64,000 bases of DNA from positions 7,351 through 71,350 of the IMG/VR virus record IMGVR_UViG_3300031976_000907; one strand, given 5' to 3'. This document shows positions 1 through 64,000 of this stretch, in pieces. The position numbers were made by a program, and so were the translations under genes. This stretch comes from a virus. The notes below the pieces were generated by a model. That model made no database searches and was not told the DNA's origin. It saw only the letters and a program-made list of their open reading frames with translations. Each line of letters begins with the position of its first letter. Position 1 is the first letter of the stretch.

Positions 1-51
1 TGCTATGGTTTTACTCTTACTGGCATAATTCCACACCTTTCTGCGATGAAG

Positions 52-81
52 GACGTCAAAAGACGTCAAGTCGGACGTCAA
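52..81 (+). repeat. Three direct GACGTCAA repeats; candidate integrase arm-type binding sites (att arm)
   Basis: GACGTCAA at 52-59, 62-69 and 74-81, immediately upstream of the integrase RBS (GGAG 83-86). Confidence 0.7.
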
Positions 82-91
82 TGGAGTGGTT

Positions 92-1072
92 ATGGCGACA
101 TTTAGAAAAAGAGGATTACGTTGGTTTGCTGAGGTGAAGCTTAATGGTGTGCGTAGGGGTAAAACCTTTGACACTAAAGCTCAAGCAAAGAACTGGGCTG
201 CTGCCGAGGAAACTCGGATTAACAGCTTAGGGGCTGGTGTAAGCCAAACACATACACTGGGTGATGTGATGGAGCGTTACTTAAGTGAAGTGTCTCCGAC
301 AAAGCGAGGAGCTAAGTGGGAGAGTAATAGAATTATTGCTTACCTTCGCCATGAGATCTCTACAGTAAAGTTAATGGATCTGAAGCGAGAGCACTTTGAA
401 GATTTAATCGAAGAACGTCTCAAGTCTGTTAAGCCAAGTACAGTTAACCGTGATCTGAATCTCATCAGTAACTGTCTGACGTATGCACGTCGTTGGAGGT
501 TAATGGATCACAATCCATTTGATGACTTGAAGCGTCCAACCGATCCTAAGCACCGTGAGCGTCTTATCTCTGTTGAAGAAATCGAAGAGATATTAATTAG
601 CTTGGGTTACGTAGAAGGGGTTAAGCCAACTCTAAAACAGCATTATGCAGGATATGCATTTTTGTTTGCGATAGAGACAGCGATGCGTTTAGGTGAATTA
701 ACTGGCTTACGTCCTGAAGATGTCAATCTTACAAAGCGTGTAGCGCACTTACCATTAACTAAGAACGGCTCGGCTCGCTCCGTTCCACTCAGCTCCCGTG
801 CCGTTCAGCTATTAACTATGTTAAAGCCGTGGGAGCATGAGACTATCTTTCAGATGTCTTCAGAACAATGTGGTGCGTTGTTTCGTAAGGGGTTAGTGAG
901 AACCAGGATAGAAGATTTAACGTTTCACGATACTCGCCATGAAGCGATTACTCGTTTAGCACGTAAGGTAGAAGTATTAGATTTGGCTCGAATAGTGGGC
1001 CATAAAGACATCAAGATGTTGATGCGGTATTACAACCGAACAGCTGAGGATATTGCTGCTCAGTTGGATTAA
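92..1072 (+). CDS. int: Tyrosine recombinase/integrase (HP1/P2/Rci-like family)
   Basis: Catalytic residues R (TAMRLGEL), K (TKNG), HxxR (FHDTRH), H (VGHKD), Y (MRYYN); N-terminal arm-binding-like MATFRKRG..W; ATG 92 follows GGAG. Confidence 0.95.
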   Translation: MATFRKRGLRWFAEVKLNGVRRGKTFDTKAQAKNWAAAEETRINSLGAGVSQTHTLGDVMERYLSEVSPTKRGAKWESNRIIAYLRHEISTVKLMDLKREHFEDLIEERLKSVKPSTVNRDLNLISNCLTYARRWRLMDHNPFDDLKRPTDPKHRERLISVEEIEEILISLGYVEGVKPTLKQHYAGYAFLFAIETAMRLGELTGLRPEDVNLTKRVAHLPLTKNGSARSVPLSSRAVQLLTMLKPWEHETIFQMSSEQCGALFRKGLVRTRIEDLTFHDTRHEAITRLARKVEVLDLARIVGHKDIKMLMRYYNRTAEDIAAQLD

Positions 1073-1329
1073 TGTTTTACAGCCCACTTAATAACGTCCT
1101 GAGCACGCCACAGAGCGTTGCTACGCTGTCCTCTACCGTTTGGTAGGCGTATGGCTTGGGGAAAGCTTTCTTGCTTGCTAGTGTGGTCTCTGAACGTTGT
1201 AGGTGATTGGCGTAAGTAAAGTGCGCAATCCTTACCGTTCCAAAGAGTTGTTTCATCTGGATGGCTCACCGCCAACCGCTGCGCTATGGCGTTCGCCAAT
1301 AGATCATAATCAATTGATAAATCAGTCAT
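1069..1329 (-). CDS. Excisionase / AlpA-like recombination directionality factor
   Basis: Small winged-HTH with FPQAIRL...LWRAQDVIKW signature; convergent with int, stop codons share TTAA 1069-1072; ATG 1329 with GGAG RBS. Confidence 0.75.
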   Translation of the reverse strand: MTDLSIDYDLLANAIAQRLAVSHPDETTLWNGKDCALYLRQSPTTFRDHTSKQESFPQAIRLPNGRGQRSNALWRAQDVIKWAVKH

Positions 1330-1370
1330 TGTGTTCTCCAAAGGTAGTGCCTCTGTGCGAGGCACAAGCC

Positions 1371-1553
1371 TTAGTGAGTAGTTGAAGTTTCGTCTTCCAT
1401 TTGGGAGACATCAACGTACCAAGAGGTGCCAATTTTTTGAGCATTTGGTAACAGTCCGTTGTTTGCCCACCGTCTTACTGTTGCCGGTGAGGGCGGAGTC
1501 ACAAAATACTCTTTTCGCCACTCTTCAAGTGCCATCAGTTTAGGGTGATTCAT
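1371..1553 (-). CDS. Lambda Xis-like excisionase/HTH protein
   Basis: LEEW...PSPATVRRWANNG.L...KIG.SW resembles lambda Xis (LQEW...SLETVRRW...KDG). Confidence 0.7.
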   Translation of the reverse strand: MNHPKLMALEEWRKEYFVTPPSPATVRRWANNGLLPNAQKIGTSWYVDVSQMEDETSTTH

Positions 1554-1564
1554 GATTATTCAGC

Positions 1565-1906
1565 TTATTTTAGTAAGCTGCCTTTGTTAGTGGTTTTAGT
1601 CTCTTTAGACCAATGAACACCAATCATGTTGCCAAGCAGTTTGGTAAACCAAGATGGTGCTTTATTTTGTGTAACCTCACCTTTGAATACGGTTTCAGTT
1701 TCCGTAATAGGTGCAGGTAAAGGAGGTGGTGTACGTACAGCAGTGCCACGAACATATTTTTCGTTAAAACACTTTTTGTAAATTGCAGAGCGAGTGCGGT
1801 TAAACACTTTTTCTAGCTCATAGATTGATACGCCAGCGGCGTACATATCTTTAAGCAGTTTTAATTCTTTGCGTGACCAAGCACGACGTTTGATTTGTGT
1901 AGTCAT
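1565..1906 (-). CDS. HTH (Myb/GcrA-like N-terminus) protein
   Basis: RRAWSRKELKLLKDMYAAGVSIYELEKVFNRTRSAI pattern. Confidence 0.55.
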   Translation of the reverse strand: MTTQIKRRAWSRKELKLLKDMYAAGVSIYELEKVFNRTRSAIYKKCFNEKYVRGTAVRTPPPLPAPITETETVFKGEVTQNKAPSWFTKLLGNMIGVHWSKETKTTNKGSLLK

Positions 1907-1929
1907 AGTTTCTCCAAGAGTAAATATCC

Positions 1930-1950
1930 AAAAACCACCGGATGGTGGTT
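1930..1950 (-). terminator. Rho-independent terminator
   Basis: AACCACC/GGTGGTT stem with U-tract on the minus strand. Confidence 0.55.
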
Positions 1951-2095
1951 ATTTATAATGTTTACTTTGTAATTTATTTAGGGTGTTATAATCCTACTTT
2001 AGCGCTCATTTTAAACCTTCATCACCCTTCTCTCGCCATAATGTGCAGTAATCTGCTCACTAGCTTTGTTTTTTAGAGCTAATGAGCAGATATAG

Positions 2096-2734
2096 TTACA
2101 TCAACAGATCAGTAATGATGGCTTTTACTTGCTTAGCAATTTCGATGTGCTCAGCCTGTGTACCATTACCTTCACGTACATCAATGTAGTGAAGCCATGA
2201 ACGCAGTGTGCCTGCCATATACATGCGTGAGCGCGTATTGCCTTCAGGCAGTACAGCGCGAGCTTGTTCTTTAGCAATGCCATTTTGAAGTGCCCACTGG
2301 TACGCTGTTTCAGCGGCAGTAATGACACTGTCTTGACGGCGATCCCAAGCGTTTTGTAGATCCTGGTCTTTAACTGCAATTGAGTTCTGACGGTTCTTTT
2401 GATCCTGTAGGCGAGCTTCACGTAGATCAAAGCCTAGCTTTTCTGTAATGGGATCAGCGTAGCGTTGTGAGAACTCTTGGAAACTAAAGCTGCGATGGCG
2501 CAGTATCTGACGAGCGATGTCACGAGTTGTATTGATCTCCATAGTAAGAGAGACCATTTCAAACGGTGACCAGTGCTTTTCACGCATGAGATAGTTAAAC
2601 AACTTCTCAGCTGTATCAGTGTTGTCTTGGTTCTTTGGGTTTGAGACACGTGCGCAAAAAACCACCAACTCTTTAAGAGTGGTGGCTTCTGGGATACACG
2701 GCTCACTTTTACAAACAAGTGAAACAGTGTTCAT
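2096..2734 (-). CDS. thyX: Flavin-dependent thymidylate synthase
   Basis: ThyX motif RHRSFSFQEFSQRY, plus HWSPFE and AREQAR-like KEQARAVLP. Confidence 0.95.
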   Translation of the reverse strand: MNTVSLVCKSEPCIPEATTLKELVVFCARVSNPKNQDNTDTAEKLFNYLMREKHWSPFEMVSLTMEINTTRDIARQILRHRSFSFQEFSQRYADPITEKLGFDLREARLQDQKNRQNSIAVKDQDLQNAWDRRQDSVITAAETAYQWALQNGIAKEQARAVLPEGNTRSRMYMAGTLRSWLHYIDVREGNGTQAEHIEIAKQVKAIITDLLM

Positions 2735-2745
2735 TAAAGTTCCTT

Positions 2746-3903
2746 TTAAATTTGGCTTATATTGACTGTGTGGCGTTCGACTTCACCGTACTCGATGTGA
2801 ACCACGAGGGCTTTGGTGTCTTGTCCCGCTCTCCATCCACCGCTGTAGGCATAATTGTCTTTGGCGGCAAGGGTTCGAAAGCTCTCCACGGTACATCCCC
2901 CGTACTCTTTGCGAGAGTCGTGGTGAATGTGTCCCGTTAACCAATAACGATTGGCACAATCTCCCCAGTCAGTTGCTCTATCGGTAGCCATGACGAGAGG
3001 GAGTTTGTCAGCTTTGGCTTGGTGCCCGTGATGCACTCCAAAGAAATTATTTCCAAATCGGAAATATTGGAACGCGTCGTTTTTACAATGAATAACGACT
3101 CGAGGTTCGTTTTCGTACATGTGTTTCAGTGCAACCATTAAGAACATTGATGAAACATCATCGTGATTACCAATAGCGGTAATAACTTCGACGTGTTCAT
3201 GGTGTTCAAGTGCTGACTTAATCATGCGACGCATAATCTTTACACCTACATCGACCATGCTGAGATAGTCTTTGTCAGTATCAAGATGATGCCCGTTGCG
3301 GCTAGTAACGCCTGCTACGTTGTCGTAGTGGAAGTAGTCACCTAAGTTACAAATGACTGCACGTTTACAGCTAGGAGTGGTTTTAACAATGCGATCAAAC
3401 GCATTGAGAAAGACTTTTTCTGCAATCTCCAAGTCCCAATCGGTGCCTGAGATTTCTTTAAGCGCTGACATACCAATGTGTGGATCACCTAGTGGGTAGA
3501 TCGCCATTAGATTGTGATCAGCATAACCTGTGTAGGCTGAAGGCTCTAGCTGAGGCAACTCAGCAACGAGCGCTTCAGACATGTCACTCATAAGACGCGC
3601 TTGAGCTTCTTTAGCAACATCCGTTTTAACCCACTGACTTTTGACGTTACCGTCTTCGTCGTAAAGGGTAGAGACGCCTTTAACAATGTGAGATTTAGGT
3701 GCTGTGTGCGTCATGTCGTGCTCAGGTGCATAGCCCTGAATAGCTGCACGATCTTTCATGCGTTTTACAGCTTTACGAATATTTCGTTCTGATACACCTA
3801 ATGCTGTAGCAGCCGCTTTTTGCGTCTGATGTTCAACAAGGGCATCCAATACTTCGTGTTGTCGAATAGTTTCGGCGTACTCACGGTACTGTTCGTAGTT
3901 CAT
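2746..3903 (-). CDS. Calcineurin-like metallophosphoesterase with N-terminal HTH
   Basis: GDPH, LGDYFH, GNHD, HHGH and GHIHH motifs; N-terminal QKAAATALGVSERNIRK HTH. Confidence 0.8.
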   Translation of the reverse strand: MNYEQYREYAETIRQHEVLDALVEHQTQKAAATALGVSERNIRKAVKRMKDRAAIQGYAPEHDMTHTAPKSHIVKGVSTLYDEDGNVKSQWVKTDVAKEAQARLMSDMSEALVAELPQLEPSAYTGYADHNLMAIYPLGDPHIGMSALKEISGTDWDLEIAEKVFLNAFDRIVKTTPSCKRAVICNLGDYFHYDNVAGVTSRNGHHLDTDKDYLSMVDVGVKIMRRMIKSALEHHEHVEVITAIGNHDDVSSMFLMVALKHMYENEPRVVIHCKNDAFQYFRFGNNFFGVHHGHQAKADKLPLVMATDRATDWGDCANRYWLTGHIHHDSRKEYGGCTVESFRTLAAKDNYAYSGGWRAGQDTKALVVHIEYGEVERHTVNISQI

Positions 3904-5171: not shown

Positions 5172-5372
5172 TCATTTACGGTGATATTTGTGGTAATCCT
5201 CACTGCAGTCAGCGTCACAAAAGATCTTCTGACTTGCGTGATCAAAGCGTTCGTCACACCAGTGACAATCGCCCTTTGGATTTAGTTCGCGTTGTTTGTT
5301 TCTAATTGCATTGATGCGTTGATCCAGAATGGCTTGTTCAATTGCATCAGTTGCGTCTAATAGATCACCCAT
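5172..5372 (-). CDS. TraR/DksA-like C4 zinc-finger protein
   Basis: N-terminal DLLDAT (DxxDxA-like) helix plus CHWC...CDADC. Confidence 0.65.
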   Translation of the reverse strand: MGDLLDATDAIEQAILDQRINAIRNKQRELNPKGDCHWCDERFDHASQKIFCDADCSEDYHKYHRK

Positions 5373-5665
5373 TACGGTTCCTCATGTTCCAGTTCTAGAA
5401 TGAATGCTAAACAGCACATAGCGTGTGATAGGTGAGGGAGGTTCGTTTCGGGATCTAGTAGCTCACCGGAACGGTAAGCATTTATGTGTCTTAGTGCAGC
5501 GGCTATGTAACGCTCTGAGGCGCTTTCTACGAGCCGCCAGTTGTTAGGGGCATACTTTGTTGCCCCAAAGGTTAAAACCTCTGCTAGAAGCTTCTCAGCC
5601 ACAGGAGGGATTAAATCAAAGCGTGGTTTCTGTTGATCGTGCTTTACGCCTACAGAATTGACCAT
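5372..5665 (-). CDS. dATP/dGTP diphosphohydrolase domain protein (DUF5664-like)
   Basis: GVKHDQQKPRFDLIPP...VLTFGATKYAPNNW...AALRH...DPETNLPHLSHA signature. Confidence 0.85.
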   Translation of the reverse strand: MVNSVGVKHDQQKPRFDLIPPVAEKLLAEVLTFGATKYAPNNWRLVESASERYIAAALRHINAYRSGELLDPETNLPHLSHAMCCLAFILELEHEEP

Positions 5666-6434: not shown

Positions 6435-8993
6435 TTAGGCGGATGCCGCTTGTTTTAATTCTTCTTGGGAGACGTAATTAGGTAATTTAATTTCGTCAGC
6501 CCAAGTTGGATAAAACGCAGATAATTGTCCACCTAAACCTACTTCTGGATGATATATGTCAGGCAAGTTTTGCCACTCCATACATTCAACCAAGTTATTA
6601 TTTAAATACTCGATAACGTCGATATTATCTCTGACCAGAAAATACTGAGCGTCATGGATATGCGCTACAGGTAATATGTCGTATCGGTATTTAGAGTTAA
6701 AAACACGTTCTTGCAGATCAACTGCAGCACGGTTGTTTAACAAGCCGTAGGATTGTCCCAAGGCATTACCAGCAGTACGCCCTTCTGCAAGGGCTTCTCT
6801 GGGTGCCGTATCTTCGTGCATGATGCACTTGGCAATAATGGGAGTACGCACGCGTAACCCAAATGCCACTTCAACGTAGCCAGTTTGTGAAGCTTTTTTG
6901 ATCTTTTCTGCCACCCACTGATCTGATACTTCATACAGTTTGTGGTAGTTAGTTTCGATCTGTTTGGCTTCGTCTTCTGGCATGTTCTCGTTTTTCATCA
7001 ACGTCATGTACGTGCCACCGTACGTGAGTGCAAAGGTAGGTGTCTTACTGCGCTGGCGCAGATCAGGGTACTTATCTTCGATTGAGTTGATGCTGCTTAC
7101 ACTGTTGGGATCTATGTCTGGCATTTCATCGCCAAAGTATCCATACGCACGTAGACAGTGACCATCGTAGCCATCGGTGTACACCTTAAGCTTGTTAGGG
7201 TCTTTAGTTGTCAGTGCTGAGATGCGATCCTCTAGTGAGGCAAAGTCTGCGCCCATAAAGAGCCACCCTGGTGGCGCTTCGAAGCATTTCTTAATGGGCT
7301 TGGCATAACTTGATCGAGTACTGGGGATGTTTTGCAGGTTTGGGCCTGAACTTGATAGGCGTCCAGAGACAGTCCCACCTAAGTTAAAGTTACCGTGCAA
7401 GTAATGCCATCCGGCTTTTTCGATGCTGTTATCTTCAAACGCTTTAACAAATGTGCCTAAGATTTTGTCAGCCTCAAAGAAACGAACCAACACAGTGATT
7501 AGCTCTTTAAGATGCTCGTCTTCGGTGTAGTTTGTTAGCTTCTTAAGCGTTTTGGCTCCTACAGCTGGCGCTCTTGAATCTGTCGTATCAACTACTGGAA
7601 AGTTTAGATACTCATAAAAAAGAGACTGAAGCTGGGGAGCAGAGTTAGGGTTAAACTGAATATGAGAGAAATCCTCAATCGGTTTAACCTTCTTTTTGAG
7701 TTTAGCATTGGCTTTAGTTTGCTCCTGTTCACGTAACATGTACGTGTACTCTTCGATGATTGGTGATTGATCAAAGAACTCTCGACAGCTTTGAATTTCT
7801 TGTTCAAGTTCTTGTCGGGTTTTTGCCACTGTACGGAGGTTAAGCGGCATGCCCGTCAGTTCCATTTGTAAAATGACTTTTACAGATGGCTTAAACAGTG
7901 ATTCGTAGATGTCGAGTTGATCGTCTTCAATCATATTGACGAAGTGTTTGTTAAATACGTACCACGTGCTGAGACAGTCAACGAGGTTATACTCAAGTAA
8001 CACATCTTCATCGATGAGTGAGATGTCATTAATGTCTGACTGGGCGTAGTTTCCGGCAAAAGCGTGAGCCTGATCTTTCAGGCTAAGCTTGTTGCCAGTA
8101 GTGGAATTCGTAGCCAAGTAGGTTATGAGCTTAGTGTCATGAAACCTTCTGGTTAGCTTTTGAATGCCATTTTGTTTGCCGTGTTCGTCAAGCATGTTGG
8201 ACATGTACAGAACGTAAACCAACACTTTCATATCAAAGTTGGCGTTGTGGAAGATCAACGTACCTTGATACTCATCAAAGAAGTCACGCAATAGTTTGCG
8301 TACTTCATGATTTGGGTCGTCCTTAGCAAAGTCCACACGAAACGCTGTTCCATTATGCTGATCCCAAGCAAATGCAATCGTACCAATACCTGCTTCATTA
8401 AATTGCAGTGCATAGGTTTCGATGTCACAAGTAAGCTGCGGGTATTCATGCAGTTTTAGAAGAGTGTTTTCGATGTCGAACAGTTTGGTAGGGTAATGTG
8501 CAGAATGCACAATACCCGTGCCAATCGCTTGATACTTACCCTTGATATAAGACGCTAGAGTGTCTAACGCTAAATCCAATTTAGATTGGTTTTCAGGGGA
8601 GTAGAACAGTGATTGGTAATTCGGTGCGAGGACAACGTTAAAATGTTCAAACCCGTCAACGGCACAAGGCACGACGTAGCCGTAATGTGGCTCAGCTTTG
8701 CGCTCTTTGGTAAGGGTTTTGAAGTAGTTACTATCGCAGACGAGGAGGGTAGTGATACCCAAGCTATCCAAGTCAGGTAATAGATTGGCAAGCCACTGCT
8801 TTTGAGTGGATGCTTTGACTTTCTTTGGATCATCATATTTTAGCCCTGCAGATAGCATGTGATCCGTGTCTACGTCTCGTAGTCCTAAAGGAGTGAAAAC
8901 ATACTGATCTAGATTTGGTTTACGCAATGCTGCGTCTTTAATAAGCACAGCAGTGGTAAACGATTGAGCGTTTGTATTAGTGATGTATCGCAT
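6435..8993 (-). CDS. Family A DNA polymerase (N4 gp39-like) with 3'-5' exonuclease
   Basis: Exo DIET, HNANFD, YNLVD; GRLSSSGPNLQNIP; motif A ADFASLEDR; motif B RSKTPTFALTYGG; motif C IHDA. Confidence 0.96.
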   Translation of the reverse strand: MRYITNTNAQSFTTAVLIKDAALRKPNLDQYVFTPLGLRDVDTDHMLSAGLKYDDPKKVKASTQKQWLANLLPDLDSLGITTLLVCDSNYFKTLTKERKAEPHYGYVVPCAVDGFEHFNVVLAPNYQSLFYSPENQSKLDLALDTLASYIKGKYQAIGTGIVHSAHYPTKLFDIENTLLKLHEYPQLTCDIETYALQFNEAGIGTIAFAWDQHNGTAFRVDFAKDDPNHEVRKLLRDFFDEYQGTLIFHNANFDMKVLVYVLYMSNMLDEHGKQNGIQKLTRRFHDTKLITYLATNSTTGNKLSLKDQAHAFAGNYAQSDINDISLIDEDVLLEYNLVDCLSTWYVFNKHFVNMIEDDQLDIYESLFKPSVKVILQMELTGMPLNLRTVAKTRQELEQEIQSCREFFDQSPIIEEYTYMLREQEQTKANAKLKKKVKPIEDFSHIQFNPNSAPQLQSLFYEYLNFPVVDTTDSRAPAVGAKTLKKLTNYTEDEHLKELITVLVRFFEADKILGTFVKAFEDNSIEKAGWHYLHGNFNLGGTVSGRLSSSGPNLQNIPSTRSSYAKPIKKCFEAPPGWLFMGADFASLEDRISALTTKDPNKLKVYTDGYDGHCLRAYGYFGDEMPDIDPNSVSSINSIEDKYPDLRQRSKTPTFALTYGGTYMTLMKNENMPEDEAKQIETNYHKLYEVSDQWVAEKIKKASQTGYVEVAFGLRVRTPIIAKCIMHEDTAPREALAEGRTAGNALGQSYGLLNNRAAVDLQERVFNSKYRYDILPVAHIHDAQYFLVRDNIDVIEYLNNNLVECMEWQNLPDIYHPEVGLGGQLSAFYPTWADEIKLPNYVSQEELKQAASA

Positions 8994-14314: not shown

Positions 14315-14776
14315 TTATGGTCGTTTATTCATTTTGGGCTTTTCGGTAAACCAGTAAGTGTTACCTTGGCTGTCGAAGCAAGCCCAAGTAGCATCTGGCG
14401 GTGCGTCATCCCAATTGGGTGCATAAGGTTTAACTCTTGCATTATCGATCCACTCAAGAATCTCATCGAGGGATTTGCGCCCTAAATTAGGGATTTCAGC
14501 AAAGTCATAGCCAGCATTAAATGCGTTAAGTACTTCCTCTTTTGTGTGGAAGTCATAACTACGTAAAGCGTTTGCAGCACGTGTAGATAGTTCAGCTTGT
14601 AATGGAGTTTGCGGGTAGCGTGACGGGCGTAAGTGGGATCGAACTAACTCTCCTACCCGTTGTGCTGTGATGCCAAAATGTGCGCCTATTTGCCCATAGG
14701 TAAACCCATTTTGATACATTTCAGCCATAGCTTCTCTACGTGCTAAGCTTTTTTGTTTAATCTCAAGCGCCTTCAT
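14315..14776 (-). CDS. Sigma-region-4-like HTH plus RNAP alpha-CTD-like domain protein
   Basis: TYGQIGAHFGITAQRVGEL; ELSTRAANAL...IPNLGRKSLDEI resembles alpha-CTD ELTVRSANCL...TPNLGKKSLTEI. Confidence 0.75.
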   Translation of the reverse strand: MKALEIKQKSLARREAMAEMYQNGFTYGQIGAHFGITAQRVGELVRSHLRPSRYPQTPLQAELSTRAANALRSYDFHTKEEVLNAFNAGYDFAEIPNLGRKSLDEILEWIDNARVKPYAPNWDDAPPDATWACFDSQGNTYWFTEKPKMNKRP

Positions 14777-18444: not shown

Positions 18445-18465
18445 CCACACCTGCGCGACAGCGCA
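18445..18465 (-). promoter_or_regulatory. Candidate vRNAP hairpin promoter P3 (template is the + strand)
   Basis: CC ACACC TGCGC GACA GCGCA; same motif at 19122 and 19549. Confidence 0.7.
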
Positions 18466-19121: not shown

Positions 19122-19141
19122 CCTCACCTGAGCGACAGCTC
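19122..19141 (-). promoter_or_regulatory. Candidate vRNAP hairpin promoter P2
   Basis: CC TCACCT GAGC GACA GCTC. Confidence 0.7.
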
Positions 19142-19548: not shown

Positions 19549-19567
19549 CCATACCTAAGCGACAGCT
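19549..19567 (-). promoter_or_regulatory. Candidate vRNAP hairpin promoter P1
   Basis: CC ATACCT AAGC GACA GCT (shortest stem of the three). Confidence 0.62.
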
Positions 19568-53442: not shown

Positions 53443-56400
53443 ATGAGCAGCAACAATCCTTATTCCCCTTTAATAACTCCCCCTACAAAAGAAGACGCAG
53501 TTAATAATGCATCCGTTGAAAAACAGAATATATTAACGCAGCGCGTTAACCCTTTATCTCAACAAGAATTAATCCAGCAAAACGCTGACTCTATTCGTGC
53601 CCGTCAATATGAACAAGCGGTACGTGAATCAGATTCTTGGGTTACTGATGAAGGTTTGGATAGTTTTGGGGGAACGGTTGCTAACTCAGTTGCTGCTGCT
53701 GTTGAAATAGGGGTTCCTCGACTATTAAGCCAAACACTTGGTTTACTGCCTAATGCTGTCAGCGCCATGCAAATTCGTGGCGTGCCTGATGCTGCTATTG
53801 AAAGCTACAACAAGCAGATGGGCATTGATGGTATGACTCGTGAGCTTGATCGTCAGCGCCGTTTGGCAATGGCAGACAGCATCATGGGCACACTGTCAGC
53901 AGATGATTACCAGAACCGTATGGCATTCTTGGATCAGAAAGCTGCAGAGATCCCTACACTGCGTCCTGAAGAGAATGCTCTACTTGATCAAGTACTTCAG
54001 CAAGATGAAGGCCCATCGATTGATGAGTTCTCTCAAGAAGACACTTCAGCGCCAGCAGGTAACCCTGTTACGTATCGCTCTAAATTGAACGCTGCTCTTC
54101 GTTCAAGCAATGCGGCAGCTGAGATTGATAAGTTCTTTATGGAAGATACGATTGTATCTGGCATCTTCAACGACTCAAGCCGTAAAGATTTAATCTCTGA
54201 AATAGAGACTGCATGGAATATTAACAGTACTGGCTTTGATAAAGCTGATGCTGCTGAAGCCAAAGGTAACTACGGAGAAGCTACTTGGGAAGGTGTTAAA
54301 ACCTTAGCAGGTTTAATTGCAGACGGTGGTTCAGCTATTGCAAGCAATCCTGGTGCATCTGTTGAATACGCAATGGAGAATGCTCCACGGTTATTAACGG
54401 GCTTGTTTGGTAAGAGTGCGCTGGCGCTAACGAATACTGGTTACGCGATGGATACTTACCGTCGTGGTCTTGAAGCTTACCAATCTGAAAATAACGGCAA
54501 CCTTCCTGATAAAGATACTCAGGGCAAAATGCTGATGTCAGCGCTTGCAGCTGGCGGTGTTGAAATGGTGGCAGACTCGGCGCTATTGAAAGCAGCGGGT
54601 CTAGGTAAAGCAGCACCTAATCCAACACAAACATTGAAAGGCGCGTTACTAAGCAGGGCTACAACACCGGTTACATCAGGTATTGGTGAAGGTGTTACTG
54701 AAGGTATTCAGACTGGCTTAGAACAACTTGCTGAAGGTAAGTCACTGGACGAAATTGATGGTGGTGAAGTCTATGCTGGTGCAGTTATTGGTACAGCTGC
54801 AGGTGGTGCTACAACAGTTCCAGGATCTGCATTAGGCGCAGTTGGTGACACAGTTCGTAAGACAGCGATAGAGCCGCTACAAAAGCGTGCAATTAAAGCT
54901 GCAGCTGAACAGCAAGTCGAAGATGCTAAGAACGCTGAGATCGATGAAGCCATTAATACAGCAATTGGTACTAAAGTACCAAGTCCAGTTATTAAATCTA
55001 CTTCTGAAGGCGAAAATCAGTCTGATTTTGCAATATCAGATGTGCTCTCTAGAATTGCCGCCCGTCATAAATCTGTCACACAGCCTTCGGAAGAGGGTAG
55101 TGAGCCAAATCTAGAGGAGGGTAAAAAACTTGTTACAGCAGCACGTCAAACGATGGTGGCTGCACGTAACAAAGCAGAGCAAGTCTCTGATCAAATTGAT
55201 GCCCTCGATAAGCAGTACGAAGGTACTGAACTACCTGCCGACGTTGCCGAACAACGTGAATCGCTTATTAGGGAAGAAGAAAGCCTTCAGGCTGAAGTCT
55301 CTGATAACGCGCAAGCCTTTAAAGATCTTGTTGCTGCACAGAACAGCCTGACCAGCACAGAAGAAGATGTGAATACTGTAGTCAACGCAACGGAGCAGAC
55401 TCAGCAGTTCAAGATCGCAAAACAACAAATAATTGACAAGACACTGAGTTCTATGGAGTCGGTTACGGTTGAGCAAGTAAGGAATGTACTTGATAAAGCC
55501 TCAACACTTCTATCAGAAGAAGAGCGTAACCAGTTAGAAAACTATGCAGAAACAAAGGAGCGATTAGACGCTGCTAAATCAGTTGATGAAGTAAACCAAC
55601 TAATCATTGAAGGCGGAACAGATACAAACGGGCGAGTGTACAAAGGTGCTGAAGAGTACCGAGATGAAATTACACTGGCAGTCCAGACAGGCGATACGCG
55701 CAAAGCGCAGATGAGCCTGATCAAACTAAGAGAATTTACTGAACGACATCGTGCGAAAGCCAATGCGTTTAAGAAAGCGTTTGCCCCGTATGCAAGAGCA
55801 CGTACTCAAGCAAGCAAGCTAGCCCCGACCAAGGAAGAGCTTGATGCAAAACAATACGTAGAAGAGAACTTCCAAACGCAATCTGGCAAGGCTTACGATG
55901 TAGGATTTAATTTTGGATCAATTGCACAAGCTACTGTGTACGAAGCGTCAGCCTTAGAAGCAACGTTACGTGAAGCAGAAGCATTGGTTCAAACTAAGAA
56001 AATAGATGATGTAACAACTGAAACAGAGACAGCCGCTGATCCATTAGTGACTGAGGATACTTCAACGACACCCGACGCCAATCAAGTAGTCGAAGAAGCA
56101 TCCCAGTCTCCTCAGCAAACTGAGGAACTTATTCCAGAAGAACAAGCGGCTGAAACTTTACAGGAACCGACAAGTAGTCAACAAGAGACTAATTCTCAAG
56201 AAGGTACTGTAGATGAAAATATTAGTCAGACCAGTAATGAAAGTGCTGTTAGTGGGTTAGTACGTCCAATTTCTGACGAAAGCATTGAACTATCTGCTGA
56301 TCAAAAAGTTGAACAAATCAACATCATAGATCGCAGTTTTAAAGTCAAAAATATTGTAGGCAGTGTGCTACATGGTATGCAGAACTTAGCTGAAACATTA

Positions 56401-59400
56401 GCTAAGTCTCCCCAAGAAGCACTTAAGTACCTTGAAATAGATTCACTTACAACCAAGCAAGAAGCGGCAGTTGCGCATTTTGCGGCATTTGTACCACAAG
56501 TGAGTGAGGCATTAAGTTCTATATTTGAGCCTAGCAAGTTCACTGTACGTAACTACATGAACAATCTTGTAAACGAAGATGGTTCATTACGTGACGGTGT
56601 CACTGAAGCGATTGCAGCAACGGTGTACAACTGGGCAGCTACTCGTTCAACGGATACGTACTACAACGACAAGCAAGCTATTGCAAATATGTTGAGCCTA
56701 CCGGAAAGCAAAGTTACTGAAGCAATGATTGATTTGCTGGGTGACAAAGGCGTTTCTCGTGCTGAACTTGTTCGACAGTTAGGTGCTGAAGTTCGTAAGA
56801 CTCTAGGACTAGATGTTAAAGATGGCAGCGTTCCGCTGAATCATAAAGATAATCTGGAACAGGCACTGGGCACTTACGCTTACGGTGTGTTGTTTGAGAT
56901 GGGTATGATTGAAGAATCAGCTGTTCCTCGTATTTGGGACGTTGGTTCTAACAAGCGCAAAGTACTTCCGATGACACGTACTAAAGCCAAAATGGTAGAT
57001 GGCGTGTTGACTGAAACAGAATCTGTTAAAGAGATTGTTGATGTTAACCGTGGTACGTCTAGCATCATCGGCAAGATGTTTAAATCTGAGATGGTTCGTA
57101 CTGAGCCACGCCTGGTTGCTCCAGAAGATCAGCCTGGTCGTCAGAAAGGAACATTTAAGTCTGTAACTGCAGCTGCTCGTCGTATCCTGACACGTCATGC
57201 AAATCGTGCACATCAGATTGCTTCTGAAGTAGACGGCGTATTCAACTTATTTAACCGCGAACAGCAAGAAGCTCTTGTCGGTGTAGTTGATTCTGATGGC
57301 TTAGAAAATACGCACAAAGCTAATCGCAAAGGTGTGGAAGGTAAGAACGCTTCACTACGTCGTGAGTTAGACGATTACAGTGAGTGGCGTGGACGCATGG
57401 AAGAAGAAGGCAGTGTTGATACTGAATTCTATCTAGAACATGAGATCTGGCGTAACCAGCGTATTGGTATGTCCACTGGCTTAATTAACCCGCAGGCTTC
57501 TAAAGTACAGCGTGGCTTGGTTCGTATGTCGAACTGGGTAAAAACGATCAAGCTGGATAACAAGAAGCACATGGATATGTTCAAACTTGGCTTTGGTCAA
57601 GGTATGGGCATAGACGTGGATAAGCTTACTATCCCTGAAAGTATTGCTGAGGTAAGCCAAGTTCTAGAAAGTGAAACGGTACAGAAAGCACTGGCTGCAC
57701 TGAACCTTCACTTGAATGGTGGTGAGCTAACCGTTGAGATGCGTGATGACATTGTTGCAGCGGTACGTATGGGTGGTGAGGGAACTCATTCACTCAATGC
57801 GTTGGTCAACTATGCACGCTACCAAGACGCAGTCGGCAAAGGTATGTCTGGATTTAAATCCGATATGGTGCTGGAAGTCGATGGTATTACCAACGGTGTC
57901 ATGATTGGTGTGATGCAATTTATGCCAGGATCTGAAAAAGCCAAAGAACTACTGGCGGCAGGCGGCATCTTTACAGATGGTACAACTTCATACGGTGAGT
58001 GGCGCTCTAAAGGTAACATCGATAACTATGAGAATCTTGCTACAGCTTGGCTTGAAAAGATGCGTGAGCGCTTTGTAGCCACTGAAGATCTTCAAGAGAA
58101 GAAGCAGTTTGCTGTTATTGCGAATATCCTGCAGATCACTAAGAACGGTAAACCTAACCGTAAACTGGCTAAAGCACCTCTAATGACGAACGTCTACGGT
58201 GCTAGTGCTGATTCAATCAAAGCATTGGTAGGTGATGAGTTTATTGATGCAATCTACAAGCGCATCGAAGACATCGTTAACGATCCAGAGCTTTGGGAAG
58301 ATGAGCGTCGTGATCAGTTAATGGCTTTACAGAATGAGCTAAACCAGCTGACATCAGAGCCACTACTTAACTTTGGTAAGTTTGCAGATACACGTTCAGC
58401 ATTGGATGCACTGGTTAATCCAGTAGCTGAGGCTGAGATTCGTGACATGCTGAGCAACAGCTTTGGTGAAGAGTTGCTTAATGCAGTTGAAGAGAAATTT
58501 GGTGACTTCATGGAGCGCCGTTCAAAATTCAACTCGCTAATCGAAAAACAGAACAAAGTCTTTACCCAGCTGTTTGATAAATTAGTTGAGATCAGAACTC
58601 AAGAACTGATTGAGCAAGGTGTTATCTCAGGTAAGTACGAAACATTGCCACAGAACGAGATCGATCTAATCATCGATAAACTGATGCCGATCATGCCAAG
58701 CTTGGATACGGTATACGCTCAAAACGAATACCAAAACATGCAGCTGACTTCGATGGAGAAAGGCTCAGCAAGCAGTGATCCAAAAGCCAAAGTAGAAGTC
58801 ACACTGGCAAACGGCAAGAAGATTACGACTTACGCACGTAAACGTGGCTTTAGAGAGAAGCTAGGTGTGGGTTCTGCAATCTTAGGTATTCACTCAATGG
58901 ATGCGGCTGTAGCGCTATCAACAATGCGTGAACTCGATATTTTGAACGTCCACGATGGTTTCTCTACATCTGTTGTGGATGCACAAAAGCTAGCTAAGTT
59001 GTTGAATAACCGTTTTGTTGAAGCGATGAAGCGTTACTCTATTGTTGAAGCAGGTAACGCCAGTGCAATACGTGCTGAAGAAGCCATAATGGAAATAATG
59101 ACTGAGTACGATTTAACTACTCGTGACATTCCTGCTTCTAAAGATTTTTACTCACAAGAATTTACTGAGCTGTCTCAAGTAACTCAAACAGAGAAAGCTA
59201 AGCTTCTTGATGAGATTACGTACGTAACTCAGTACAACTTGGAAGAGTCTGGTCAGACAAACGAAGCGCCGAAGGCAGCGGATGTGACGGCTGACAGAAG
59301 TGAATGGGGTTCTGTCTACACAGGTAAGAAGTCTGCTCGTAAACGTCCAATGACAGCGGCAGAAGATTACCTACGTAACAACGACAACCCAACAGTAGGT

Positions 59401-62400
59401 GGTTTGGTTGATTTGGTGATGCCATTCATTGATAAGCGTTCAGCGATTGCACGTGTACTAGGTACACTGGGTGCAGCACTGGACACTAATTTAAACTTTG
59501 CCCTGGTTGAGCCAAACACTAACCTGGATAGCGCGTCAGAAGAAGTACGTAAAGCGATTAAAGATTCACACGCGCTGTATGACGGTAACACGCATACGGT
59601 GTACTTAAAGAGCAGTGCATTCTCCCATCATGGGATGAACGCTGAAACTATTGCACACGAATTGATGCACGCACTGGCTTCTCGCTACATTCAAGATAAC
59701 CCTGACGCAGAAGCGGTACAGGAGCTTGAAGAACTGCGCCAGCAAGTTCTGAAAGATCTGGACTCTAAGCCAAACCTATTTGGTGAAAAACCACCACAGA
59801 TCAGCAACGTTGATGAGTTGTTGGCTTGGGGTATGACCAATGAAACGTTCCAAAGCTACCTGAAGTCTCTACGTGTTAAACCACGTGAAGGTAAAGTAGT
59901 AACTGGCTTTAAACGTTTTGTGAATCTTCTACAGAAGATCATGTTTGGTAAGGAAGTTGAAGGTGCAACTAACACAGCAATGTACCAGTTGATTGAAAGC
60001 GGTGCTCAAATTATGAGCGATGCGCGTCAGTACAAACCTGCTGAGTTGGATTACAGCGTAGCACCACAAAAAGCCCAGACAATGTCGTCTATTCAAATGC
60101 TTGAGCAACTTGGATTACGCGATACTTTAAACACCCGTACACAAGCGCATAAATCACATCTGGCTAAGATTCAAGCAAGCGTGCTAGACATTTTGGCTGG
60201 CCCATTCCATAGCACACTGCGTGATGTGGAAGACAGCTTAGGTGATGACGTTGATCAGATGATTCGACACTTACAAAATAAGACCACACCGTTTGTGTCT
60301 GGCTTAGTAGGTAAGTTTAATCTATCGGCACAAGAAGCGTATGTGAGTGAGCAAGTTGAAGCGGTACTAGGTGAACTACTTAATACAGATAGTCGTGAAC
60401 GCAAACAGCTTACACGCTTATGGCAGTTGGCTAAAAACAGTGAAGAAGTTCGTAATGCGTTAACAGAAGAGCAGTGGAATTACATTTTTAATCCACGCAC
60501 AACATCTGTGATTACGTCTTATAACTCGCTGGCAGGTAAGTCGGTAACTCGTCAACAGTCTGACTATTTGCAACGCTTTGCGGCGCTTTCGCTAACGCAC
60601 GCACCGCTACGCGATGCTATGTCAGGTATGAACGTAAATGCTCAGAGCTTACCTGTTAAAGGTAAGTCATTTGGTAAACAGATCGAAGCAATCTGGCATA
60701 ACCTACTTGAGTATGTTCGTAAGCTTATGGATCGTGCGTCTAATGTCGATGGCCCTGCGCAAGAACGTATTGATCGCATCTTGCAAAACCTTGCTGTTAT
60801 TGAGCATCGTAAACGTCAACGCATCGAAGCTGACATTAAGAAAGCAGAAGCTGCTCAAGATAACCCGCTAAACAAAGCGATCCATTCAGCGACTGCTACT
60901 ATCAAACGTAAGATGCGCAACACCCGTAAAGGTACGATCAGTCGTGCAGCAGACGTTGCTTCTCGTATGACGGAAGAGGGTGTGGCTGACGGGTTTGCTG
61001 ATGTAATGCAAAAAGTCCGTAACCGTATTACCTCTAAGCGTAATGGTTTGGTAATGAGTCTGGTTCAAGAACTGCGTGGTGAGACGGAAGGTAACTCCCG
61101 TTTCATGAAACTACTGCGCTGGTCTAACCGTGATATCGACCAGGCACGCCGCCAGGTTAAAGAGGCAATGACAAGCTTGGTACTGGAAGGCTTTGAACAA
61201 GAGCTGACCAAAGAAGAATCAAGTGCACTGACTAAAGCCATCATTATGACGGACATGGTTAGCTTATTTGATAACCCTAAAGATATCTCGAAAGCGATGG
61301 CTATGCTGGAAGACCCATCAGCACGTAGCGCAATGATTGAAGAGCTTGAGTCACAACTAGCACAAACCGAATACGGCATGTTCTACGTGAACCAAGCTGA
61401 TGCATTGGGCATGTACATGGCACAGGGTCGAGCTACCAACACGATGTTGATTAAGAACGCTCACGGTATTGCCCGTTTGTTTGGTCGCCCTGAAACAGCA
61501 AGCGATGCTGACATTAAAATGGCTGAGCCATTGATTGACCAATTGGCAACTTTGTACGCAATCAATTACACCAACGCAGATCAGCGTAATGCAGCAATTA
61601 ACATGCTGAATAAAGATCGAGCAGGTGTATACCATGCAATGTTCTTACACAAGCAACTTAAGAAAGAAGCACTTGAGAGCGCATTTGATGGTGATCCTGC
61701 ATTGATGGCAAAAGGTTACACCTACGAAATCACCAACCCACATAAAACAGTGGCATGGGCAGAGAAGGGTAGTGATGAAGCTGCCTTGCTAGAAGCTCAA
61801 GGTTATGTGTTGGATCACGAAACAGTATTTGCATACGATCGTCGTCAACCTAACCCAGTTGGTGTGTACGTATTGCACGATGGCGGTACAGCTCGTTACA
61901 TGGCATCAATCATGTCGAACACAAACCTTTCGGCAAAAGGTTCGTCATTAGCTAATGTATTGGCCCAAGGTGACGGTAAGATCTACCACACTGTCAAAGA
62001 ACAGCAAGATGGTATTGCTGCACAACGTGCTAACGATTCACGTCTGTTACTGAGTCAACGTGTGAAGCCAAATCCTGATGTGGTTTATGGTATTCCGGTG
62101 TTTAACCCTGACGGTAAAGCAGTCGATTTCCGATTGGAGATGCTACAGCACTACCGCGAACAAACACTTGAAAAAGATTACCGTCTAGAGCATGTACTTG
62201 GTGGTGAAGCAGGTAACCTTGTTGATAAGCAATCTTCTGAAGCGGTAAACAGTGACACGATTGTGGCATTGGCAGAAGCTTACAAAGCAGATAGCGACAA
62301 GGGTGAGTACATTACTATCTCGAAAAATCCTGGTGATGCGCGTCTTAAAGAGATTTGGGACATGCTGCCTGAAGCAGCTAAGCAAAGGGCGCAGGATGAA

Positions 62401-63852: not shown

Positions 63853-64000
63853 TGTGAAAACAACGACTTAGCTGGCGAAGATGTTGTATCTTCTAAGCCA
63901 AATGGAACCGTTGCCTCCGTAGGCTCGTCTACTGAAATGGTTTCAGCGACTACCTCTACAGGTTCAGACGCTTCAATCGTCTCTACCACAGTGTCTTCTT
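63849..64000 (-). CDS. 3' end of an acidic protein (truncated by the window edge)
   Basis: ...EDTVVETIEASEPVEVVAETISVDEPTEATVPFGLEDTTSSPAKSLFSQ*; SLF-type tail as in N4-like middle genes. Confidence 0.6.
   Translation of the reverse strand, partial: EDTVVETIEASEPVEVVAETISVDEPTEATVPFGLEDTTSSPAKSLFSQ

Follow-up and report, generated by a model that had tools for sequence, protein, structure and literature searches.

N4-like phages are regarded as strictly lytic, which is one of the grounds on which they are selected for phage therapy. Their early genes are read only by a polymerase injected from the virion, and the middle and late genes depend on products of the cascade that follows. Escherichia phage N4 is not known to have an integrase gene, excisionase (Xis) gene or phage attachment site (attP) in its replication stretch. 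The subject here is IMG/VR virus record IMGVR_UViG_3300031976_000907, a single contig of 71,350 bp of which bases 7351–71350 (64,000 nt) are hereafter called the window; genome coordinates are those of the whole contig. A block of genes at the left end of the window is probably, at a likelihood of roughly 0.7, the integration/excision module of a temperate, uncultured marine N4-like phage, with an attP core that copies the end of a tRNA-Leu(TAA) gene.

According to Zheng et al. (2023, mSystems, PMC10654107), 54 N4-like genomes carry lysogeny hallmark genes (integrase, transposase or diversity-generating retroelement), 14 ‘lysogenic’ uncultivated virus genomes are marine, and marine metagenomes are the largest source. 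The same paper reports 40 integrated N4-like proviruses, 28 of them in Moraxella, names BK028931 as an integrase-bearing Humphriesvirinae genome, and states that lysogeny had not been shown earlier. The present record may itself be among the 54 genomes (Table S4). Novelty, as implied by an earlier note on this DNA, is thus not sustained, and since N4-like lysogeny has been published at survey level the surprise is limited. Like the surveyed genomes, the present one joins a full N4-like hallmark set to an integrase, and in both cases lysogeny is proposed from sequence alone. The two differ in that a word search of the survey's main text returns attP zero times and tRNA once, and in that the hosts described there are mostly Moraxella, whereas the relatives found here are from Alteromonas. 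What is added here is a description of attP and its tRNA-Leu(TAA) core, of the layout across the family and of the Alteromonas relatives. The accessible portions of the literature searched contained neither a laboratory proof of lysogeny nor an analysis of att sites for any N4-like phage.

Integrases and temperate features have likewise been reported in podovirus groups deemed strictly lytic, namely T7-like pelagiphages (bioRxiv 10.1101/410191) and LUZ100 (PMC10134795). Those phages differ in virus family and in transcription strategy; N4-like phages need the injected polymerase, which poses a separate problem for switching a prophage off and on.

Integrase, excisionase-like genes and predicted attachment site

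The features of the module within the window are as follows.

1–29 (genome 7350–7379, starting one base left of the window), plus strand: sigma-70-like promoter match (TTGCTA, 18 nt, TG-CATAAT), upstream of the P′ repeats and int
52–59, 62–69 and 74–81, plus strand: three direct repeats of GACGTCAA, putative P′ arm sites, 10–12 nt apart, ending 2 nt before the GGAG of int
92–1072, plus strand: int, tyrosine integrase of 326 aa (PF00589, phrog_1); the open reading frame (ORF) is listed as 86–1072 from GTG, 328 aa
1069–1365, minus strand: ORF98, AlpA/Xis-like helix-turn-helix (HTH) protein of 98 aa, convergent on int with a 4-nt overlap; phrog_4996 (function unknown)
1371–1553, minus strand: xis (Xis60), excisionase-like protein of 60 aa; PF07825 Exc, HTH_17, phrog_629

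The ATG at position 92 lies six bases after GGAG and fits better as a start than the GTG at 86; homologues align from this ATG. An intact tyrosine integrase, as described in the earlier note, is borne out by matches to PF00589 (E 8e-21, 75 bits against a cut-off of 27.1) and phrog_1 (E 7e-61) and by the catalytic residues R199, K224, H279, R282, H304 and Y313, which are invariant in an alignment of 36 homologues. An AlphaFold2 (AF2) model built on the same alignment has a mean predicted local distance difference test (pLDDT) score of 90.8. The model opens with strands at residues 2–7, 10–17 and 20–26 and a helix at 29–47; a flexible linker then leads to a core-binding domain made of helices, and the catalytic domain comes last. 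Foldseek aligned it along its whole length with full-length lambda Int (1z1g_A; E 4e-9, 352 columns), and also with Tn1549 Int (E 2e-10). As modelled, Int is a lambda-type three-domain integrase with an N-terminal arm-binding domain. It resembles lambda Int (1z1g) and Tn1549 Int (6emy) in the three domains, the RKHRH-Y set, the presence of predicted arm sites on both sides of the core, and a small Xis-type protein encoded beside int. Sequence identity to the two is just 14–19 %, and the present system also differs from theirs in that its six putative arm sites share one orientation, its core copies a tRNA 3′ end, and attP precedes int and extends into the region where translation of int starts.

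By sequence, the closest solved structure to Int is XerD. Assignment as XerC or XerD was rejected, as the NCBIfam scores are far under the equivalog cut-offs (47 vs 329.6 bits for TIGR02225; 40 vs 335 for TIGR02224). The closest relatives of Int are chromosomal (Thalassolituus, Marinobacterium, Cellvibrio), and among the 40 listed phage integrase matches there is no record of N4 size. A strain variant (P0122) retains a full-length Int that is 84 % identical; it was not found among viral contigs.

The two genes convergent on int are also as the earlier note proposed, at differing strength. Xis60 passes the cut-off of PF07825 Exc (35.9 bits against 23, E 7.5e-9) and matches the phrog_629 excisionase profile (E 1.6e-13). 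For ORF98 there are Atlas leads alone (HTH_17, MerR and AlpA); the protein probably has 86 aa, beginning at the ATG at 1329, and the Atlas entry begins at residue 13. A homologue of ORF98 (48 % identical) is convergent directly after the integrase gene at locus L130, which encodes the closest chromosomal homologue of Int (54 %), and this suggests that Int and ORF98 travel together. ORF98 is a candidate for the directionality factor cognate to Int, or for a regulator.

Direct repeats upstream of int are likewise present as the earlier note described, with the qualification that their clustering and not their number is non-random. The count of GACGTCAA in the 64-kb window is three, which is not above chance (shuffle mean 2.17; 37 of 100 shuffles reach three), and all three copies lie within 30 bases in one orientation. 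Their placement points to P′ arm-type integrase-binding sites. ORF152, to the left of the window, and int are separated by a gap of 662 bp (genome 6774–7435), in which GRCGTCA copies lie at genome 7070, 7195 and 7206 (left arm) and the right-arm copies at 7402, 7412 and 7424, the two arms flanking the core at 7248–7266. Inside 355 bp around the int start are five of the genome's nine plus-strand copies of GACGTCA and 6 of its 17 copies of GRCGTCA; none of the five reverse-strand copies of the arm word falls there.

The core, AGTCCGGTCCGGGGCACCA (19 nt, genome 7248–7266), lies between the two arm clusters and reads as the 3′ half of a T-stem, an acceptor 3′ strand, a discriminator A and CCA, with 175 bp from the CCA to the int ATG. 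ARAGORN calls no tRNA gene in the window or at the locus carrying the core (L001), thus the core is a tRNA fragment and not a gene. The whole of attP spans approximately genome 7068–7431, of which the last 81 bases alone are inside the window; the core and the second arm cluster sit 84–282 bases left of window base 1 (genome 7068–7266). The module is therefore not complete within positions 1–1553, as the earlier note had it; addition of the 370 bases to the left of the window completes it.

In 401 sampled gammaproteobacterial genomes an 18-mer of the core has nine matches with one mismatch, against two for a reversed control, and the core matches tRNA-Leu(TAA) 3′ ends in sampled genomes at 18 of 19 positions. 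ARAGORN was run on six of the nine one-mismatch loci and on L034, a two-mismatch match; among these seven it called the 3′ end of tRNA-Leu(TAA) at three, tRNA-Arg(CCT) at one, tRNA-Leu(GAG) at L034 and no tRNA at two. IMG/VR contains the exact 19-mer at one locus only, L139, where it forms the 3′ end of a tRNA-Leu(TAA) gene belonging to a Gly-Cys-Leu cluster; 166 nt further downstream begins the gene for an integrase with 39 % identity to Int (E 1e-57). Since the L139 record has 62 % GC, it is not the host of the phage.

Homologues of Int in bacterial genomes share the arrangement. The protein was searched against 401 genomes sampled from the order of a Cellvibrionaceae metagenome-assembled genome at a threshold of E ≤ 1e-50, and eight genomes contained a homologue (39–54 % identity). 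Seven of the eight start 157–204 bp downstream of a same-strand tRNA 3′ end (Leu-TAA in five, Leu-CAG in one, Phe in one); one is without a tRNA. Among 12 more distant loci, two have the same arrangement, with tRNA-Leu 162 bp upstream at L004 and tRNA-Arg 95 bp upstream at L006. Three direct repeats about 11 nt apart stand directly before the integrase ribosome site in L130 and L132–L136, L131 being less regular, and a triple repeat also precedes the integrase in L139. The repeat words differ by locus: CTTCATCA in L130, a TACGAACGA-like word in L132 and L133, TTGCACC in L134, CTGCACC/TTGCACC in L135 and L136, CTCAC[CG] in L139 and a GCGCA/GCGTA series in L131. These repeats are probably P′ arm sites, each integrase having its own word. 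By this comparison the order of tRNA-like core, triple repeat and int in the phage is the same as in the homologue family. The tRNA-Leu(TAA)-associated integrases of marine Gammaproteobacteria (L130, L131, L134–L136 and L139) are alike in full-length identity (39–54 %), in the tRNA 3′ end 157–204 nt before int and in the triple repeat before the start codon; they differ in being attL sites in chromosomes or other proviruses, whereas the phage has an unintegrated attP with a repeat word of its own.

An N4-like genome with an integrase hot spot

The backbone features that define the setting of the module are these.

1565–1906, minus strand: ORF113, small protein of unknown role, last gene of the ThyX-to-exonuclease block; weak phrog_323 match alone
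2096–2734, minus strand: ThyX, the right-hand backbone gene flanking the inserted block; PF02511 (E 2e-39), synteny with Salmonella phage FSL SP-058
53443–63507, plus strand: virion RNA polymerase (vRNAP), 3354 aa, N4-like hallmark; phrog_2206 over residues 107–3345
63910–64000, no strand: terminal overlap, in which the opening 91 bases of the record recur at its end; left by the assembly of a circular map

The earlier note's claim that the module is contiguous with a full N4-like gene set was correct. The vRNAP match spans profile positions 51–3403 of 3406 with no internal stops, and the genome also encodes both RNAPII subunits, portal, major head protein, TerL, SSB and DNA polymerase; PHROG matches for the remaining N4-like set are phrog_2166, 2051, 743, 1216, 1357 and 38. 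The DNA polymerase is 54 % identical to its counterparts in Salmonella and Klebsiella Humphriesvirinae. On this gene content the N4-like identity of the genome is firm. No near-identical DNA is present among 50,697 phage records.

IMG/VR classes the record as having direct terminal repeats, CheckV completeness is 100 %, and an ORF spans the join of the record ends. Because the record is circular and represents the unintegrated form, both flanks of the window are phage DNA: to the left of base 1 are genes for RuvC-like, SSB, gp44-like, primase and gp42-like exonuclease proteins and two small ORFs. Host genes and an attL/attR pair, for which the earlier note proposed to examine these flanks, are accordingly absent from them, and the core is single-copy. 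The stretch is present in part or whole in 20 listed sequencing runs from 11 studies, all of them seawater, marine or aquatic metagenomes; seven of the 20 contain half or more of the sampled words, one may be the source of the record, and there is no RNA run among those listed. The phage is an uncultured marine one, and its likely host is an Alteromonadaceae-like gammaproteobacterium.

The module forms a block of approximately 3.5 kb between the genes for ThyX and the gp42-like exonuclease, within the replication region. FSL SP-058 and Escherichia phage N4 have the same order of DNA polymerase, ThyX, exonuclease, primase, Sak4-like and SSB genes. The FSL SP-058 replication stretch differs in having no integrase, Xis or attP, with one hypothetical gene in the ThyX-exonuclease interval where approximately 3.5 kb has been added here. 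No homologue of ORF113 was seen in the loci compared.

Full-length primase homologues of 61–62 % identity are assigned by their sources to Salinimonas marina (3.77-Mb contig) and Alteromonas sp. RKMC-009 (4.93-Mb contig), and that of Alteromonas alvinellae (92-kb contig) is a member of the P0018 cluster in the same 61–62 % set. The Salinimonas marina and RKMC-009 chromosomes with an N4-like region encode WP_195812060 and WP_119501211, respectively. A search of 400 sampled gammaproteobacterial genomes gave no N4-like primase. In IMG/VR, 279 relatives were retrieved with an alignment of 18 primases, and the best 80 of them were compared. The exonuclease was found in 78 of these 80, and tblastn with the phage Int gave no match in them. 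A Pfam integrase search of the four nearest long N4-like records showed an integrase at the same place in three, and vRNAP is intact in all four. Among five short fragment records, one (G810) has an integrase, at a contig end beside an ORF152-like gene.

Among the relatives is G404, an IMG/VR provirus of 75,038 bp and 100 % completeness. Its 422-aa integrase is at the extreme left end and the exonuclease and primase are at the extreme right end, which is the permutation expected of a circle opened at a point separating int from the exonuclease. The primase of G404 is identical to P0017, which a source names as from Alteromonas sp. RKMC-009. The record is trimmed at gene ends, with no terminal repeat longer than 10 nt, and att sites are therefore unreadable in it. 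By these sequence criteria a complete N4-like provirus related to the phage resides in a chromosome of Alteromonas, which is good indirect support for lysogeny. The hot-spot region of G404 also contains a 344-aa transposase ORF (L128 4328–5362, minus strand), putatively IS110-like by its N-terminus.

G405 (73,480 bp) has an integrase of the G404 type in an unpermuted layout, and 26 bases after the int stop is the reverse complement of GGTTCAAGTCCGGCCCCGGGCACCA, a tRNA-Leu-like 3′ end (L049 7825–7849). G407 starts within a tRNA-Cys-like 3′ part (L129 1–48), followed by a P4-type integrase and an AlpA-like gene. Relatives carry three unrelated integrase types at this place, and on gene order the ThyX-exonuclease interval is a hot spot for interchangeable tRNA-directed integration cassettes in this marine subclade. 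Across the subclade the integrase targets belong to the same Gly-Cys-Leu tRNA gene cluster.

Probable lysogeny and competing explanations

If the phage is temperate, its genome would circularise and Int would then be made from its own promoter. The N-terminal domain of Int would bind the arm sites and the other domains the core, bridging both, and strand exchange would take place within the 19 nt common to the 3′ end of the host tRNA-Leu(TAA), with the phage copy restoring the tRNA. The P′ sites fall after the possible promoter and before the start codon of int, and Int therefore probably restrains its own production. ORF98 and Xis60 would be read in the same direction as the flanking middle/replication genes, convergent on int, and this co-orientation suggests that the Xis-like proteins are made when the replication genes are transcribed. 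Middle transcription would also enter int in the antisense direction, which would shift the balance toward excision once lytic development is running.

Several results weigh against this reading. No copy of the phage bounded by attL and attR was found in species genomes, metagenome contigs, IMG/VR or the 401 sampled genomes; the best identity to Int was 47 % over full length in 185,579 species genomes, 48 % in metagenome contigs, 47 % in IMG/VR and 54 % in the 401 genomes. The 18-mer of the core has no exact match in the 401 sampled gammaproteobacterial genomes. Neither PF01381 (HTH_3) nor PF00717 (S24), the CI/LexA-type families, is matched in any of four genomes, the phage, G404, G405 and G407. 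There is no known route for shutting off or restarting an N4-type cascade begun by injected vRNAP. The region has no more sigma-70 matches than chance would give (4 against 6.7 expected), which leaves the promoter assignment weak; ORF98 has no Pfam or NCBIfam match and belongs to no curated family; and an integrase is present in 3 of 80 N4-like loci by a four-query search of limited sensitivity, most loci being without one. The earlier note's reading of the genes as an integration/excision module is well supported; its temperate phage is an inference, since the searches above found neither an integrated copy nor a CI-type repressor.

Candidates for a repressor are available in the phage genome. 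ORF152 (genome 6315–6773, minus strand), which adjoins attP to the left of the window, has Atlas leads to RepL, MarR and HTH_36 winged-helix proteins. It has no Pfam, PHROG or NCBIfam match and none in 50,697 phage records, and a single-sequence AF2 model (pLDDT 38.9) has no usable fold. Homologues are present in 5 of 80 N4-like loci, all among the closest relatives. In front of ORF152 the 19-bp palindrome ATCTACC-TCTAA-GGTAGAT occurs twice, 32 nt apart (genome 6785–6845). ORF152 is a candidate regulator or origin-binding protein, and together with its two palindromes, and alongside several further HTH proteins (ORF166, ORF107 and ORF153), it is among the candidates for the repressor.

The lack of HTH_3 and S24 proteins in the phage and three relatives, among them a complete provirus whose vRNAP is intact, would fit a form of lysogeny with no classical repressor, a proposal that we regard as doubtful. 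As early genes need the injected polymerase, an integrated N4-like copy would be silent by default. Decision and induction might then proceed via ORF152 with its paired palindromes, or via leakage of host polymerase into the vRNAP gene.

The same lack of a CI/LexA-type repressor, and the failure to find an integrated copy in the searched genomes, contigs and IMG/VR, would equally be expected if the module were intact in sequence yet the phage were lytic, the module being a recent acquisition or a decaying remnant with no immunity system suited to the N4 cascade. Occurrence of the phage in virus-fraction metagenomes is also in keeping with this. However, Int has lost none of its catalytic residues, the Int of the strain variant (84 % identity) is also full-length, the module matches the backbone in composition, and a relative arranged in the same way resides in an Alteromonas chromosome as a complete provirus whose vRNAP is intact. 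A purely lytic phage is thus an unlikely reading.

Less probable still is a passenger role, in which a cargo cassette or small integrative element occupies a variable spot of the phage genome and serves its own spread. The hot spot itself, occupied in FSL SP-058 by a single hypothetical gene and in relatives by three unrelated integrase types, raises this possibility, as do the chromosomal relatives of Int. The core, however, occurs once in the phage genome, even with up to four mismatches allowed, so the block is not bracketed by an attL/attR pair of its own, and the G404 provirus comprises a whole 75-kb N4-like genome, permuted at the hot-spot site.

That Int serves dimer resolution or genome circularisation, like Xer or Cre, and not chromosomal integration is very improbable: the weak NCBIfam XerC/XerD matches and the XerD structure as best sequence match are outweighed by Xer scores far under the cut-offs (47 vs 330 bits), by the arm-binding N-domain, by arm repeats to either side of a core that copies a tRNA end, by the excisionase genes, and by the position of Int homologues beside tRNA genes.

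An assembly chimera, in which the assembler joined a temperate-phage fragment to an N4-like genome, is hardly credible, since, although the record is a metagenome assembly with low and variable depth over genome 9001–9400 in four runs, contigs from other studies bridge both junctions, an integrase is at the same place in relatives, composition is uniform, and one contig size is common to a primase of this kind and the 84 % Int.

The assembly evidence comes from contigs of four runs from four studies other than the possible source, aligned on genome 3001–15000 (contigs only; 32 of 237 pieces listed). One contig (X3, 3042 nt) contains primase, exonuclease, ORF152, attP and the first 56 bases of int, beyond which are 48 unlike bases resembling a diverged integrase. 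A contig from X2 covers the core and 600 bases of int with no differences, and a contig from X5 spans ORF113 and ThyX but lacks 83 bases of the spacer; a chimeric join near 1900, which the earlier note had named as a possible refutation, is thereby made unlikely. GC content and third-position GC content (GC3) of the module genes are inside the backbone-gene range. A 19,299-bp Joint Genome Institute (JGI) contig size is common to a primase of the P0001 cluster and the 84 % Int (P0001 is 95 % identical to the phage primase, and the cluster member is at least 90 % like P0001); from the equal size, both are probably on one contig.

The X3 contig has 15 of the 16 left-side differences listed for the X2 contig, and it has 64 differences against 16 over a stretch only 231 bases longer. 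This suggests co-occurring strains that have the left arm in common and differ in the P′ arm and int, with a switch at or near the core, most differences being outside the list and their placement therefore not shown. In X3 the sequence appears much more diverged right of the core than left of it. Recombination at attP would produce such a switch at the core. Of two successive contigs in X2, the first (depth 17.2) stops at the last A of the core CCA and the second (depth 8.05) begins 30 bases before that point (genome 7237–7266). The 30-base overlap is the k-1 overlap of an assembly-graph branch, with about half of the depth going elsewhere; the unequal depths speak against the branch being the attR junction of an integrated copy.

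Neighbouring genes and implications

Several genes further along the window were also recorded. A 385-aa metallophosphatase-type exonuclease with an N-terminal HTH (window 2746–3903, minus strand) matches phrog_704 (E 5e-110) and has no homologue in the 80 N4-like loci compared. A 97-aa protein (5372–5665, minus strand) belongs to the dATP/dGTP diphosphohydrolase N-terminal family (PF18909, E 5.8e-33), and at the equivalent place FSL SP-058 has a small gene annotated as phosphofructokinase. Between the two RNAPII subunit genes is the gene for a 153-aa protein (14315–14776, minus strand) with an N-terminal HTH and a match, above the cut-off, to the C-terminal domain of RNA polymerase alpha (PF03118, E 1.3e-8). 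Additionally, an 18-nt motif is present in three copies (18445–18462, 19122–19139 and 19549–19566; minus strand GCTGTCGC..AGGT..GG), each a short distance before an ORF of the early region. The copies may be early (vRNAP) promoters; N4 itself has three early promoters.

For the N4-like phages as a group, a subclade with working integration modules would qualify the assumption that they are strictly lytic. It raises the question of how a prophage is kept silent and restarted in a phage that needs an injected enzyme for its first transcription. The present record gives a precise predicted attP, with arm sites and a tRNA-Leu(TAA) core, and points to cultured Alteromonas with related proviruses.

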